Positions 52,272 through 59,434 of a DNA stretch of 64,000 nucleotides are shown piece by piece; the first letter of the stretch is position 1, and each line of letters begins with the position of its first letter. Made by a program: the position numbers and the translations under genes. The notes beneath the pieces are model-generated. The model saw only the letters and a list, made by a program, of their open reading frames with translations. It searched no databases and was not told the origin of the DNA. Source of the stretch: a virus (taxonomy: Duplodnaviria > Heunggongvirae > Uroviricota > Caudoviricetes); IMG/VR virus record IMGVR_UViG_2740892441_000001, one strand, 5' to 3'.

Positions 52272-54305
52272 TTACTTAACCTGGTGGCCAGGTTTAGCAC
52301 CAGCATCCGGGCTTAACAGGAAGATGTCTTTCCCGCCGGGGCCAGCAGCCATCACCATGCCTTCGGAGATACCGAAACGCATTTTACGCGGAGCCAGGTT
52401 AGCCACCATAATGGTGTGACGGCCAATCAGTGCCTGTGGGTCTGGATAAGCGGAACGGATGCCTGAGAAGACATTGCGTTTTTCACCGCCGAGATCCAGC
52501 GTCAGGCGCAGCAGTTTGTCAGAACCTTCAACAAAGTCTGCGTTTTCGATCAGCGCCACGCGCAGGTCAACTTTGGCAAAGTCGTCAAAGGTGATGGTTT
52601 CCTGAATCGGGTCGTCTGCCAGCGGGCCAGTAACTGGCGCGGCAGTAGCTTTCACTTCTTCTTTAGACGCTTCCACCAATGCTTCCACCTGTTTCATGTC
52701 GATACGGTTATACAGTGCTTTGAACGGATTCACTTTATGGCCCAGCAGCGGTTGCTGGATACCATCCCAGGTCAGTTCTGTATTCAGGAATGCTTCTGCA
52801 CGTTCAGTCAGTTTCGGCAGTACCGGCTTCAGGTACGTCATCAGCACGCGGAACAGGTTAATGCCCATAGAGCAAATCGCCTGCAGATCGGCATCGCGTC
52901 CTTCCTGCTTCGCCACCACCCACGGAGCCTGTTCATCGACATAGCGGTTAGCCAGGTCAGCCAATGCCATGATTTCACGGATAGCTTTACCAAATTCGCG
53001 GCTTTCCCATGCTTCGCCAATCACTTCAGCGGCATCAGTAAAGGTTTTGTACAGTTGCGAGTCAGCCAGTTCGCTTGCCAGCACGCCGTCAAAACGCTTG
53101 TTGATAAAGCCTGCATTACGGGAGGCCAGGTTAACCACTTTGTTCACGATATCGGCATTCACGCGCTGAACGAAATCCTCCAGGTTGAGATCGATATCAT
53201 CAATGCGCGAAGAGAGTTTCGCAGTGTAGTAGTAACGCAGGCTGTCGGCGTCAAAATGATTCATCCAGGTGCTGGCTTTAATAAAGGTGCCGCGAGACTT
53301 GGACATCTTCGCGCCGTTCACCGTCACATAGCCGTGAACAAACAGGTTGGTCGGCTTGCGGAAGTTGCTGCCTTCCAGCATGGCAGGCCAGAACAGGCTG
53401 TGGAAGTAAACGATATCTTTACCGATGAAGTGGTACAGCTCGGCGGTGGAGTCTTTCTTCCAGTATTCATCGAAGCTGGTAGTGTCGCCGCGCTTGTCGC
53501 ACAGATTCTTGAAGGAACCCATGTAGCCAATCGGTGCGTCCAGCCAGACGTAGAAATATTTACCCGGCGCGTTCGGAATTTCAAAACCGAAGTAAGGTGC
53601 GTCGCGGGAGATATCCCACTGTTGCAGACCAGATTCAAACCACTCCTGCATTTTGTTTGCCACCTGCTCCTGCAACGCACCGCTGCGGGTCCATGCCTGC
53701 AACATTTCGCTGAAAGAGGGCAGATCAAAGAAGAAGTGTTCAGAATCACGCATTACCGGCGTAGCGCCAGAAACTACCGATTTCGGCTCAATCAGTTCAG
53801 TCGGGCTGTAGGTCGCGCCGCAAACTTCACAGTTATCGCCGTATTGATCTGGCGCTTTACATTTCGGACAGGTGCCTTTCACAAAACGATCCGGCAGGAA
53901 CATGCCTTTTTCCGGGTCGTACAACTGAGAGATAGTGCGGTTTTTAATAAAACCGTTCTCTTTCAGGCGAGTATAGATAAGCTCAGACAGCTGGCGGTTC
54001 TCTTCGCTGTGCGTCGAGTGATAGTTGTCATAGCTGATGTTAAAGCCTGCGAAATCAGTCTGGTGTTCCTGGCTCATTTCGCCAATCATCTGTTCCGGTG
54101 TGATACCAAGCTGCTGTGCTTTCAGCATGATCGGCGTACCGTGGGCATCGTCGGCGCAGATGAAGTTGACCTCGTGGCCGCGCATTCGCTGGTAACGGAC
54201 CCAGACATCAGCCTGGATGTGCTCCAGCATATGGCCGAGGTGGATTGAGCCGTTAGCGTACGGCAGCGCGCACGTCACCAGAATTTTCTTCGCGACTTGG
54301 GTCAT
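52272..54305 (-). CDS. metG: methionine--tRNA ligase
   Basis: 677-aa protein from [25 protein letters not shown] (HLGH, KMSKS motifs, C-terminal tRNA-binding domain); matches E. coli MetG as I recall it; the 43-codon N-terminal extension in the ORF track is rejected. Confidence 0.95.
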
Positions 54306-54462
54306 AGTAGGCATTACTTCTTTGTAGTGAAAAGGGGCTTGATAGTAACAAAATGGCCTTATGTCTGCCATGTGATAACAGCATTTCTCATAAATGATTA
54401 AATGTCGTAGCTGGAGTACACTACAAGGCGACAATTGCGCAAATTAAAATAAAGGAGACGGG

Positions 54463-55563
54463 ATGAGCGAGTCCAAATCGCCGGATGCCCTGAGAGCAAT
54501 GGTAGCCGGTACGCTGGCTAATTTTCAGCACCCAACCCTGAAGCACAACCTGACTACGCTTAAAGCGTTACACCATGTTGCGTTGATGGATGACACACTG
54601 CATGTCGAACTAATCATGCCTTTCGTGTGGAATAAGCCTTTTGAAGACCTGAAAGAGCAATGTAGTGGTGATCTGCTCCGTATCACTGGCGCAAAGGCTA
54701 TCGACTGGAAGCTGTCGTACAACATTGCCACGCTTAAGCGCGTCAAAAACCAACCAGGCATTAATGGCGTTAAGAACATCATCGCCGTCAGCTCAGGCAA
54801 GGGCGGTGTAGGCAAATCGTCCACAGCAGTAAACTTGGCACTGGCGTTGGCTGCTGAAGGTGCGAAAGTTGGTATTTTGGATGCCGATATCTACGGTCCA
54901 TCAATTCCAACCATGCTGGGTGCGGAAAACCAACGTCCAACCTCACCGGACGGTACTCACATGGCACCTATCATGTCTCATGGCCTGGCAACCAACTCTA
55001 TTGGTTATCTGGTCACCGACGACAATGCAATGGTGTGGCGTGGACCGATGGCCAGCAAGGCGTTAATGCAGATGTTGCAGGAAACTCTATGGCCTGATCT
55101 GGACTATCTCGTTCTCGATATGCCGCCGGGCACTGGTGATATTCAATTGACGCTGGCGCAGAACATTCCTGTAACTGGTGCTGTTGTGGTAACTACGCCG
55201 CAAGATATCGCGCTGATCGATGCGAAGAAAGGCATTGTGATGTTCGAAAAAGTCGAAGTGCCGGTACTGGGTATCGTCGAAAACATGAGTGTGCATATTT
55301 GCAGTAACTGCGGTCATCACGAGCCAATTTTTGGCACCGGTGGCGCACAGAAGCTGGCCGAGAAATACAACACGCAGTTGTTAGGCCAAATGCCACTTCA
55401 TATCTCTCTTCGTGAAGATCTGGATAACGGAACACCAACCGTTATTAGTCGTCCAGATAGCGAATTTACGGCTATTTATCGTGACCTCGCAGATCGCGTT
55501 GCTGCCCAAATGTATTGGCAAGGTGAAGTAATACCTGGCGAAATCGCATTCCGCGCAGTGTGA
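54463..55563 (+). CDS. apbC: Fe-S cluster carrier ATPase ApbC/Mrp
   Basis: 366-aa ORF; deviant Walker A SGKGGVGKSS; CxxC motif; divergent from metG as in enterobacterial chromosomes. Confidence 0.95.
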   Translation: MSESKSPDALRAMVAGTLANFQHPTLKHNLTTLKALHHVALMDDTLHVELIMPFVWNKPFEDLKEQCSGDLLRITGAKAIDWKLSYNIATLKRVKNQPGINGVKNIIAVSSGKGGVGKSSTAVNLALALAAEGAKVGILDADIYGPSIPTMLGAENQRPTSPDGTHMAPIMSHGLATNSIGYLVTDDNAMVWRGPMASKALMQMLQETLWPDLDYLVLDMPPGTGDIQLTLAQNIPVTGAVVVTTPQDIALIDAKKGIVMFEKVEVPVLGIVENMSVHICSNCGHHEPIFGTGGAQKLAEKYNTQLLGQMPLHISLREDLDNGTPTVISRPDSEFTAIYRDLADRVAAQMYWQGEVIPGEIAFRAV

Positions 55564-55564
55564 T

Positions 55565-55592
55565 AAAAAGGTGGTGCAATGCACCACCTAAA
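55565..55592 (-). terminator. hairpin shared by the convergent apbC and umuD'-like genes
   Basis: aggtggtgcaatgcaccacct, flanked by an A/T run. Confidence 0.45.
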
Positions 55593-55600
55593 CAGTTCTC

Positions 55601-55990
55601 CTACATCACAGGACAATCATCAAACTCGCCACTTCTTGCGTCGTTGATAATGTGAGTGATCACACCAAACACGGCATTGCTGCCCGTGCATCCATCATCA
55701 TCCTTTGGCAATGCTTCCTTCTTACCAGTTCTTAAATCCTCCAGATGCTGACGTGGATACTTCCGGTATCTTTTTACGCGATATTCCCCATCCAGAGCAC
55801 ATACAAGAAGAGATCCATCAACAGGAGTGAGTGAGGAATCGACCACCAGCAATGCACCCTGCAATATTCCCTCACGATGATGACTATCAGCCGCCCTCAT
55901 GAAGTAGGTCGCTGAAGGATGTCTAATTATCTGCTGATCAAGAGAAATACGGCTCTCTGCATAATCCGCCGCAGGAGATGGGAAGCCCAT
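55601..55990 (-). CDS. UmuD'-like (HumD-type) S24 peptidase-fold protein
   Basis: 129-aa ORF starting MGFPSPAADY, i.e. at the position of the UmuD Cys24-Gly25 cleavage site; Ser/Lys dyad context retained (DSH, VKR); GAGGTG SD. Confidence 0.8.
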   Translation of the reverse strand: MGFPSPAADYAESRISLDQQIIRHPSATYFMRAADSHHREGILQGALLVVDSSLTPVDGSLLVCALDGEYRVKRYRKYPRQHLEDLRTGKKEALPKDDDGCTGSNAVFGVITHIINDARSGEFDDCPVM

Positions 55991-56028: not shown

Positions 56029-56160
56029 TACATGAAAGAAACCCACTTAGTGCAACCGATCGAGACTCTTCACCAAACAAAAATATTTTTCTCAAATAAG
56101 AAAAGGCAGAAAACAAATTGTTTAAGGCCACTAGTTGTGGCCTTAATGGGGGAGGGGTGC

Positions 56161-57553: not shown

Positions 57554-57852
57554 TCGTCATCCTCATCCGAGTCATCCTCATCACAGGATGAGAGTAGTGG
57601 GTTAGTCATTCGCCCTACTTGAGTGGCGTAGCCACGCCGACAGAGATTGCGCAGCACACTGTATATTTCGAACATCTCGGTTCGTTCATCGCCAACATCA
57701 AGCTCAGATGCTATAGCGTGGCATTCAGTCGCGAGAGCCGATATTTTCTGAAATAACTCTGCTTTATTCACTCTTAGACTCCTGCGGAGGTTCTGGTAGC
57801 GGCATCCAGTGAGTTGCTTGCTCAATACCATTACCCGGCTTAATCGTTGCAT
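57550..57852 (-). CDS. hypothetical protein
   Basis: 100-aa ORF with acidic C-terminal tail. Confidence 0.3.
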   Translation of the reverse strand: MQRLSRVMVLSKQLTGCRYQNLRRSLRVNKAELFQKISALATECHAIASELDVGDERTEMFEIYSVLRNLCRRGYATQVGRMTNPLLSSCDEDDSDEDDE

Positions 57853-58498
57853 CTCCGCGCCGAAAGGTGCTTCCGGTATAGCGTGCGGAGCATATTAGCG
57901 GTTCAACCAGAGAGCTATCGAAATTCACCGAAATAAGCACGTTCTGGCCCTTTTCAGGCATTCGCTCACTACAGCTTATCCAACCATCCGGAGTTACCGG
58001 ATTGTTGCCAGCCTCATACGCGACCCTTATCCAGTGCATAAGCATTTCAGTACTTACACATCCACAATCAACATCAATTTTGTCATGCTGCTGTTCCAGC
58101 CATTGCTCAAAAGTTAACTTGTAAGTTTGGCTTACAGGTTTGGCTTCCAGTTCTGCTATGTGATTTTTGGCTGATTCCAACTCAATCGACAATTTTTCCA
58201 ACTGCTCTTTATGATTTTTATATTCCTGATATGCGTGCCAAGACTGACCTTTGCGCACACTATCAGTGATATCAGCAACCTGCTCTGGTGTTAGCGTGGT
58301 CAGTGGCTGTGCTGGAAAAATCATCACTTGCCCGGCATCCCAATCAAAACCCGCCTGAATTGACTGAACCTCAACTGATGGTGTTGAACCGATGCGACCA
58401 GGCGAATGAACAACGATCGTTACATCCATATCGCGACGATGGCTGTGGTTGTTGGACAAAATACGATTCACCGACTCAGAAAATTTGGAAAATTTCAT
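57764..58498 (-). CDS. DUF551-like prophage protein
   Basis: Start moved to MKFSKF (AGAGGGG SD); C-terminal [13 protein letters not shown] segment. Confidence 0.45.
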
Positions 58499-58821
58499 GC
58501 TGACCCCTCTTTCTCTCCCCGGATAATTCTGTTGCACACATCCACACACTCGTCGCAGATGAAAACGGCGTCCCCAGCAATTAACTTTTTGACGGCGTAC
58601 TGGGATTTGTTGCAGAAGCTGCAACAAAGTGTTCGCCTGGCTGATAAGGATGGAGCGCCAGATGTCAGCCGCTCCATATCGTTCTTGCGACGCAATATCA
58701 CACGGCTGAACTCAACCAGTTTCTCCGGGGATATCTCCTCCTCCTCCGTAGCGAGCGTCTCTAGTCGTTCGAGTATGTGGAAGGCTTTTTCCTGGGTAAT
58801 TGCAGAATGCGATGTGGTCAT
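58495..58821 (-). CDS. ClpX N-terminal zinc-binding-domain-like protein
   Basis: Start moved to MTTSHS (GGAGAG SD); C-terminal [28 protein letters not shown] resembles the ClpX C4 zinc ribbon. Confidence 0.5.
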
Positions 58822-58822
58822 C

Positions 58823-59434
58823 TCACTCTCCTTTGATGCGAATGCCAGGGGCGCGTGGCACATTAACTTCCACGATGCGCACTGTTGGTTTGTACATCTC
58901 AATCGCTGTCAGCCAGTCAGCTCCTGTCATGCGCTTTTCCGCATCGCCATTAGTCCACTGAACCGGTACACCAATAGCCTTCATCGCGATTTCTATTTCC
59001 CCGGCAATGGCGCTTTTTCCGCAACCAGTAAAACCAGATACAACGACCAGAACTTCACCTTTGGCTGGTTTTATTTCCCGTGCTTCCAGTTCTGCAATGC
59101 GCTTACTTCCATCCGAGATAACGCCCTCGTAATACTCACGCTGCTCGTTGAGTTTTGATTTTGCCAACTCCAGTTGTTTTGTTAGTTCTGCAATACGACA
59201 AACATCGTTGATACGCGTTTCCTCTAATGCGTTGCTCTCATCCAGTAGCGCCAGCACGGTTTCTGGTCCGGCCAGAAATTTGAAGGCGTTGAGGGCATCA
59301 ATATCAACACCGCTATCTTTAAGTTCCTGTTCGCTTATCAGATCATCATCAACTGGCAACATTAACAGGCGTTCCATTGCCGGAATTGCACGCTCTGCCG
59401 CCTCACGCAGTGCCTGATAGTCAATCTTGCTCAC
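58823..59434 (-). CDS. Ea22-like coiled-coil protein with P-loop
   Basis: 203-aa ORF; N-terminal coiled coil; [12 protein letters not shown]alker A-like motif. Confidence 0.4.

Follow-up and report, generated by a model that had tools for sequence, protein, structure and literature searches.

A Small Protein of Temperate Enterobacterial Phages With a C-Terminal ClpX-Type Zinc-Binding Domain and Its Possible Role as a Docking-Domain Mimic

Introduction

ClpXP controls much that is of consequence to temperate phages and plasmids: RpoS, lambda O and Mu transposase, UmuD/D' of SOS mutagenesis, several antitoxins (e.g., P1 Phd and MqsA), and restriction alleviation. The zinc-binding domain (ZBD) of ClpX is where SspB and RssB dock, and its deletion abolishes sigma-S turnover mediated by RssB while ssrA substrates are unaffected (PMC7226468). 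Supplied in trans, the purified ClpX ZBD inhibits the RssB-dependent degradation of sigma-S by ClpXP in vitro, and the site on RssB at which the ZBD docks overlaps the site of IraD (PMC7226468; Micevski et al., 2020). F16 and I46 of the ZBD form a hydrophobic pocket that is common to trigger factor, lambda O, SspB, and RssB, and the degradation of lambda O needs the ZBD (PMC7804408).

Several described systems modulate proteolysis in related ways. Mycobacterial ClpC2 joins a dimerising N-terminal domain to a copy of the ClpC1 N-domain, it acts as a molecular sponge for ClpC1 ligands, and it doubles as an autoregulatory transcription factor (PMC10030653). Phages encode inhibitors of host ATP-dependent proteases, i.e., T4 PinA and T7 gp4.5 directed at Lon and lambda RexB directed at the ClpP family, and such inhibitors can block the protease-dependent activation of toxin-antitoxin systems (PMC10286901). 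IraD, IraM, and IraP, small anti-adaptors that have often been acquired horizontally, occupy RssB and thereby stabilise sigma-S. Moreover, some small phage proteins are little more than a ZBD, namely PHROG 12435 (annotated as 'protease'), a 65-aa 'Clp protease' of phage PP9W2, and an ORF of about 72 aa in phage Cr30.

The locus described here lies in a window of 64,000 nucleotides (the whole stretch of DNA that was analysed, to which all coordinates refer unless a locus is named), which is an SSU5-like temperate phage-plasmid of Escherichia coli. It encodes a protein of 108 amino acids, hereafter the ZBD protein, which shares the fold of the E. coli ClpX N-domain but carries it at the C-terminus behind a novel helical hairpin, has no AAA+ module, and is phage-borne, whereas ClpX is encoded in the chromosomal clpP-clpX operon. 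The mode of action proposed below is that of the purified ClpX ZBD used as a competitor, which titrates RssB/sigma-S (PMC7226468; Wojtyra et al., 2003); the latter is a laboratory fragment, while the gene in the window is natural, encodes an additional domain, and has a predicted activity. ClpC2 is likewise a stand-alone docking-domain paralogue of a Clp unfoldase, which places this domain C-terminally behind a dimerising domain and works as a sponge (PMC10030653), but it belongs to the ClpC1 unfoldase, has another fold and no sequence relationship to the ZBD protein, is encoded on a bacterial chromosome and is a transcription factor. PinA, gp4.5, and RexB resemble the ZBD protein in being small phage modulators of host proteolysis; they are not homologous to it and bind the protease itself, whereas for the ZBD protein a binding of clients is proposed. 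IraD, IraM, and IraP have unrelated folds and are stress-regulated host genes, and an effect of the ZBD protein on RssB is hypothetical. The small phage ZBD proteins differ from the ZBD protein in having no hairpin, are 36–44% identical, and come from other host clades.

Gene Organization and Local Context

The ZBD gene (58495..58821, minus strand) was read from the sequence as a complete coding sequence of 108 amino acids plus stop, with its ATG at 58821-58819 (minus strand). A Shine-Dalgarno sequence, AAGGAG, can be read directly at 58828..58833 (minus strand), 6 nt 5' of the ATG and within the 3' end of the upstream gene. A longer TTG-initiated form of 135 aa was dropped, as the homologues begin at the ATG, and a plus-strand ORF of 250 aa (58406-59158) is an antisense shadow. 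The upstream gene (58823..59434, minus strand) encodes an Ead/Ea22-like protein of 203 aa (Pfam PF13935, E=1.1e-22), and a single base separates its TGA at 58825-58823 from the ATG of the ZBD gene (GAG TGA G ATG); at the other end, the TGA of the ZBD gene and the ATG of the downstream gene share a 4-nt ATGA overlap. Judged by this arrangement, the ZBD gene is translationally coupled to both neighbours, and the tight packing makes it part of a translationally coupled array of small minus-strand genes that spans 63964 to 56161.

An Ead/Ea22-like gene is the usual upstream neighbour of the ZBD gene across loci, including PhiR41_1 and D6. The downstream gene (57764..58498, minus strand) encodes 244 aa with a C-terminal DUF551 (Pfam PF04448) and a conserved N-domain of ~100 residues that belongs to PHROG 6026 and has no Pfam match; in most loci this PHROG 6026 domain follows the ZBD gene immediately, with the 4-nt overlap. 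An obligate two-gene module was nevertheless rejected, because 316 complete E. coli genomes contain the downstream gene but about 110 the ZBD gene, i.e., the downstream gene is ~3x commoner, and DUF4752 often stands upstream of it in place of the ZBD gene. This makes the ZBD gene an optional cassette of Ea22-type accessory arrays rather than one half of a fixed pair. All neighbours of the ZBD gene belong to PHROGs of unknown function. Membership in a defence system is without support, as the PADLOC-DB v2 defence models gave 0 matches among 8 proteins (the ZBD protein and its neighbours in the window and in a P2-like locus).

Some further features of the surroundings were noted. The N-domain of PHROG 6026 is fused to varied C-terminal modules, to DUF551 here and to Ea22-like coiled coils elsewhere, in proteins of 173–310 aa in total that form >290 clusters. 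A 61-nt direct repeat (87% identical; 56087-56147 and 60270-60330), each copy of which contains a GGCCAC…GTGGCC hairpin followed by a T-rich tail on the minus strand, flanks a 4.1-kb block of six accessory genes, among them the ZBD gene; such a repeat could serve as a terminator present twice or mark the recombination boundary of a gene cassette. A gene at 59909-60238 (minus strand) encodes 109 aa that match only the first half of HD_4 (PF13328, E=3e-7), a RelA/SpoT-type (p)ppGpp hydrolase domain; it is possibly a truncated accessory gene akin to small alarmone hydrolases. The region 52272-55990 holds genes for a methionyl-tRNA synthetase, an ApbC/Mrp iron-sulfur carrier and a UmuD-like protein of 129 aa, the last of these (55601-55990) at a distance of about 2.5 kb from the ZBD gene. 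Since the N-domain is what tethers UmuD to ClpX, a functional link between the UmuD-like protein and the ZBD protein is conceivable.

The ClpX-Type Zinc-Binding Domain

An initial sequence-only reading had assigned a ClpX-type C4 zinc domain to the C-terminus of the protein, and this assignment is borne out by profile, alignment, and structure comparison. The domain comprises residues 66-103 (58513..58626, minus strand), of which residues 66-101 match Pfam PF06689 (zf-C4_ClpX) over profile positions 2-38 of 39 with E=1.3e-15 and 57.4 bits, the curated gathering cut-off being 27 bits. The best matches in the PDB are the structures 2DS5 and 1OVX of the E. coli ClpX ZBD (E about 7e-15), to which 28/41 residues are identical without gaps. 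The same reading had named an incompatible cysteine spacing as the outcome that would speak against ClpX; in the alignment the spacing C67-x2-C70-x18-C89-x2-C92 is identical to C14-x2-C17-x18-C36-x2-C39 of ClpX. These four cysteines, the predicted ligands through which the protein would bind zinc, are invariant among 29 unique family sequences. An AlphaFold2 model of the 108-aa protein, built from 17 family sequences, has a pLDDT of 77–91 in the ZBD, in which a treble-clef fold (beta-hairpin, strand, and C-terminal helix) is present, and this predicted structure superimposes by Foldseek on 2DS5/2DS6/2DS8 with an rmsd of 0.5 Å over 38 residues. The resemblance to the ClpX ZBD, in the alignments and in the model, is far beyond chance. 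The word 'N-terminal' in the earlier description, a ClpX-type N-terminal zinc ribbon, applies to the place of this domain in ClpX; in the ZBD protein it stands at the C-terminus. The ClpX equivalog models NF003745 and TIGR00382 score 42 and 40 bits versus cut-offs of 359 and 371, with only the first ~45 positions of the profiles matching, and no AAA+ module was found with them in the 108-aa protein. A Pfam search detected no DNA-binding domain in it.

The positions that form the ligand pocket of ClpX are kept to differing degrees. F69, the equivalent of ClpX F16, is invariant in the 29 family sequences, I99 (ClpX I46) is I in the window protein and I or V in 26/29, and I100 (ClpX I47) is I in 27/29; the F16/I46 pair of a functional ClpX N-domain is accordingly present as F69 and I99, and the hydrophobic pocket of the window protein is kept as F69, V95, and I99. 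G83, I88, V93, and C96 are the other invariant ZBD positions of the family, and the K19-S20-Q21 stretch and the A29-G30 turn of ClpX are kept as well. The window protein is, unlike ClpX, substituted at P31, G18, L42, and D45. Within subfamily A the equivalent of G18 is N/K/F, that of P31 is D/E, and that of L42 is V/A/D/L, while the D45 equivalent is highly variable within the family and the P88-type subfamily retains the equivalents of P31 and L42. L42, P31, and G18 are, as far as is known, near-invariant among ClpX orthologues, a conservation that subfamily A does not share. Since pocket-lining positions vary, the pocket is altered in some family members, and the ligand could be something other than a canonical ClpX adaptor.

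The N-Terminal Hairpin and the Linker

The ZBD is preceded by a predicted helical hairpin comprising residues 10-53 (58663..58794, minus strand), which was delimited by the AlphaFold2 model, alignments, a profile search, and dN/dS. Its helices are predicted at residues 10-27 and 32-53 with moderate confidence (pLDDT 63–71), and the most conserved block of the N-terminal region reads V-[IM]-L-R-R-K-x-D. According to the alignments the hairpin is at least as conserved across the family as the ZBD. A search of 1.84 billion representative proteins with a profile of the hairpin only gave 11 hits; three of them are low-complexity repeat proteins and 8 are real relatives, i.e., five full-length ZBD proteins of 110–119 aa and three truncated or frameshifted copies. 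Because all 8 real relatives are ZBD proteins or such copies of them, the hairpin is, by this profile search, exclusive to the ZBD-protein family. Foldseek returned no structural relatives of the hairpin in PDB or BFVD, and any role ascribed to it is a guess given this result and the moderate confidence of the model. Hairpin and ZBD are joined by a flexible, fast-evolving linker, as judged from pLDDT and dN/dS (residues 54-65; 58627..58662, minus strand), with a pLDDT below 50 at residues 57-61 and a length that varies in the P88-type subfamily.

Selection and Origin

The family falls into two subfamilies, the window type, the members of which are 62–97% identical to the window protein, and the P88-type, which is about 50% identical overall and has a ZBD even closer to ClpX (roughly 30/40 residues by manual count, including AGPSVYIC and CVDLCN). 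Pooled Nei-Gojobori estimates from 15 subfamily-A genes put dN/dS at 0.27 in the hairpin, about 1.2 in the linker, and 0.63 in the ZBD, figures that are rough as the pairs are not phylogenetically independent. Both hairpin and ZBD are under purifying selection, which is stronger on the hairpin. The ZBD had also been described as a free-standing copy, but it is more than that, as it follows a conserved, family-specific helical region of 55 residues whose dN/dS is below that of the ZBD itself.

A comparison with the 5' end of E. coli clpX, a reference verified at 100% identity in RefSeq genomes, showed 68% protein identity for the ZBD and 63% DNA identity, with third codon positions matching at 19/41 and saturated synonymous sites (pS=0.83). 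A recent capture from host clpX was rejected on account of these DNA-level values. As the protein is still 68% identical despite the saturation of synonymous sites, the likeness of the ZBD to ClpX is, on sequence grounds, old and maintained by selection. Degenerate alleles also exist: in the IMG/VR SSU5-like copies L013 (5001-5849) and L026 (5001-5822) a frameshift just after ICDEC in the ZBD fuses the truncated ZBD gene to the downstream gene.

Distribution and Nomenclature

Plasmids and phages of ~106–121 kb cover 82–89% of the last 24 kb of the window at about 97% identity. Besides these SSU5-like elements, the ZBD gene is carried by three other phage backbones: P1/D6-like phage-plasmids of about 90 kb, in which it is D6 orf93; P2-like prophages carrying ParM/StbB, in which it is found (as P88 gp19) in a variable region flanked by the replication and portal genes; and lambdoid, Stx-phage-like prophages. 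The idea that every carrier is plasmid-like with partition genes, which the first three of these backbones had suggested, was rejected, as the flanks of one locus (L010) are lambdoid and Stx-phage-like. All full-length relatives come from Escherichia, Shigella, and Salmonella, and a relative was found in 220/5426 complete E. coli genomes (about 4%), with a near-full-length DNA match in 110. The homologues form 29 clusters at 90% identity. A profile scan for the N-domain across one genome per prokaryotic species returned no relative, and a word-index search with the ZBD only returned two fragments and nothing more.

The position between replication and portal genes was seen in the P2-like prophage L004 of E. 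coli UTI89 (4814-6487) and in L045-L047. This variable region is a hotspot for accessory and defence genes, and in the P88-type prophages L004-L006 it also holds a gene of the Mom-like/XF1762 family.

The protein matches PHROG 6797 over its full length (E=6.6e-57), a family listed as of unknown function, and the current RefSeq name of the family is "ClpX C4-type zinc finger protein". The older RefSeq/GenBank name "carboxylate--amine ligase" is unsupported, as the ClpX ZBD is the sole Pfam/NCBIfam signal and neither an ATP-grasp nor a GCS2-type ligase domain was found in the protein with these collections. Thus, the family is already catalogued by domain name, and the novelty lies in its unexplored biology; literature searches returned no paper on this family nor on any phage-borne stand-alone ZBD.

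Possible Functions of the ZBD Protein

The suggestion that the ZBD protein competes with or redirects ClpXP is plausible and has a precedent in vitro in the purified ClpX ZBD that inhibits sigma-S degradation in trans (PMC7226468). The reading that we lean towards, tentatively and at somewhat less than even probability, is that the ZBD protein imitates the ClpX docking domain as a soluble factor acting in trans and titrates adaptors or substrates that depend on the N-domain. With expression of the array, the ZBD protein would accumulate as a stand-in for ClpX's docking platform in solution and would bind the ligands of the ClpX N-domain, both the XB-type adaptor tails of, e.g., SspB and RssB and substrates that depend on the N-domain such as lambda-O-like or MuA-like proteins; UmuD also counts among the XB-type ligands. 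The titration of these ligands would selectively damp adaptor- and N-domain-dependent degradation by ClpXP, while directly recognised tags such as ssrA would still be degraded. The hairpin might supply oligomerisation for avidity, or an additional phage-specific contact. The phage might benefit from a stabilised replication or regulatory protein of its own, from raised RpoS, or from a block of toxin-antitoxin or abortive-infection responses that are triggered by ClpXP. The occurrence of the gene as an independent cassette without obligate partner in four unrelated temperate-phage backbones is consistent with a conserved host target. Further points in favour are the identity of the domain, the conservation of its cysteines and of the F16, I46, and I47 equivalents, the likeness to ClpX that selection has maintained, the purifying selection on hairpin and ZBD, the parallel of ClpC2, and the existence of phage inhibitors of host proteases. 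We do not rate the titration of ClpX ligands higher mainly because positions lining the pocket vary and the hairpin is more strongly constrained.

This variation of the pocket would be expected if the ZBD were a zinc-ribbon dimerisation or binding unit unrelated to ClpXP, for instance in a small regulator or in a partner of a protein of the Ea22-type array, a reading that we regard as unlikely. The zf-C4_ClpX domain occurs outside ClpX, as in P0029, which has an N-terminal ZBD and a different C-terminal region that, from a reading of the sequence, possibly ends in a helix-turn-helix, and short stand-alone ZBDs exist in the unrelated phages Cr30 and PP9W2; ClpC2, the closest architectural analogue, is a transcription factor besides being a sponge. 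The nearly constant translational coupling to the same downstream gene can be read in the same direction, but that gene's greater abundance and its frequent association with DUF4752 argue against obligate pairing, and no DNA-binding domain was detected in the Pfam search. Moreover, an identity of 68–75% to enterobacterial ClpX ZBDs in the face of saturated synonymous sites exceeds what a dimerisation scaffold needs, and F16, I47, K19-S20-Q21, and A29-G30 are retained. A decaying or functionless clpX fragment picked up by a phage is extremely improbable: the frameshifted alleles L013 and L026, fused to the next gene, and several truncated database entries would fit such a remnant, yet intact copies occur in all four phage backbones with their start, stop, and coupling signals conserved, hairpin and ZBD both show a dN/dS below 1, the synonymous divergence from clpX is saturated, and a dedicated N-terminal domain is present.

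The constraint on the hairpin, in turn, is what one expects of the effector end of a protein that acts on ClpX directly. The phage ZBD might form mixed dimers with the ZBD of ClpX, or the LRRK helix might dock on it like an adaptor tail, and a helical module would thereby be grafted on the ClpX hexamer, so that the trimer-of-dimers of N-domains would be poisoned or ClpXP would be retargeted, e.g., to host defence or regulatory proteins. We judge such a direct action on ClpX to be improbable, somewhat more so than a role unrelated to ClpXP. The ClpX ZBD is reportedly named a dimerisation domain in the title of a 2003 paper by Wojtyra and colleagues, ZBD dimers are reported, and the phage ZBD, which may likewise dimerise, retains most of the ClpX core residues; the dimer of ClpX is, however, said by Wojtyra and Donaldson (also in 2003) to be very stable, and its exchange with a free domain may therefore be slow. 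L43-R44-R45-K46 bears a loose similarity to LKxh, the consensus for binding to the ZBD, and to the LRVVK tail of SspB; this similarity is very short and may be due to chance, and the prediction for the block is a helix, in contrast to the XB tail, which binds as a strand (2DS8).

A more far-reaching version of the docking-domain mimicry, which we consider doubtful and still less probable than a direct action on ClpX, would make the ZBD protein a dedicated mimic by which temperate enterobacterial phages reprogram host proteolysis. For anti-defence, ClpXP would be kept from degrading antitoxins or labile inhibitors whose loss triggers abortive infection; for retargeting, the ZBD module would attach to ClpX and redirect it to host proteins, similar to viral adaptors that work with ubiquitin ligases. 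If this were true, the stand-alone ZBDs of Cr30 and PP9W2 would mark widespread, unrecognised viral protease modulators that act by domain mimicry. If the ZBD protein is a natural, selectable inhibitor specific to ClpXP degradation that needs the N-domain, it would explain how some phage-plasmids tune ClpXP pathways, it would add the mimicry of a docking platform to the counter-measures of phages, and it would offer a genetic tool to separate adaptor-dependent from adaptor-independent ClpXP activity in vivo. If its role is instead unrelated to ClpXP, this zinc ribbon would be a more general interaction module than assumed.

Stand-Alone ZBDs in Other Phages

The stand-alone ZBD of Pseudomonas phage PP9W2 (65 aa) is available in BFVD as A0A9E7CCK4. 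In Caulobacter phage Cr30 the whole ZBD is held by the ORF of about 72 aa at ~1540-1761 of locus L043, relative to which the annotated CDS gp170 (41 aa) appears to be 5'-truncated.
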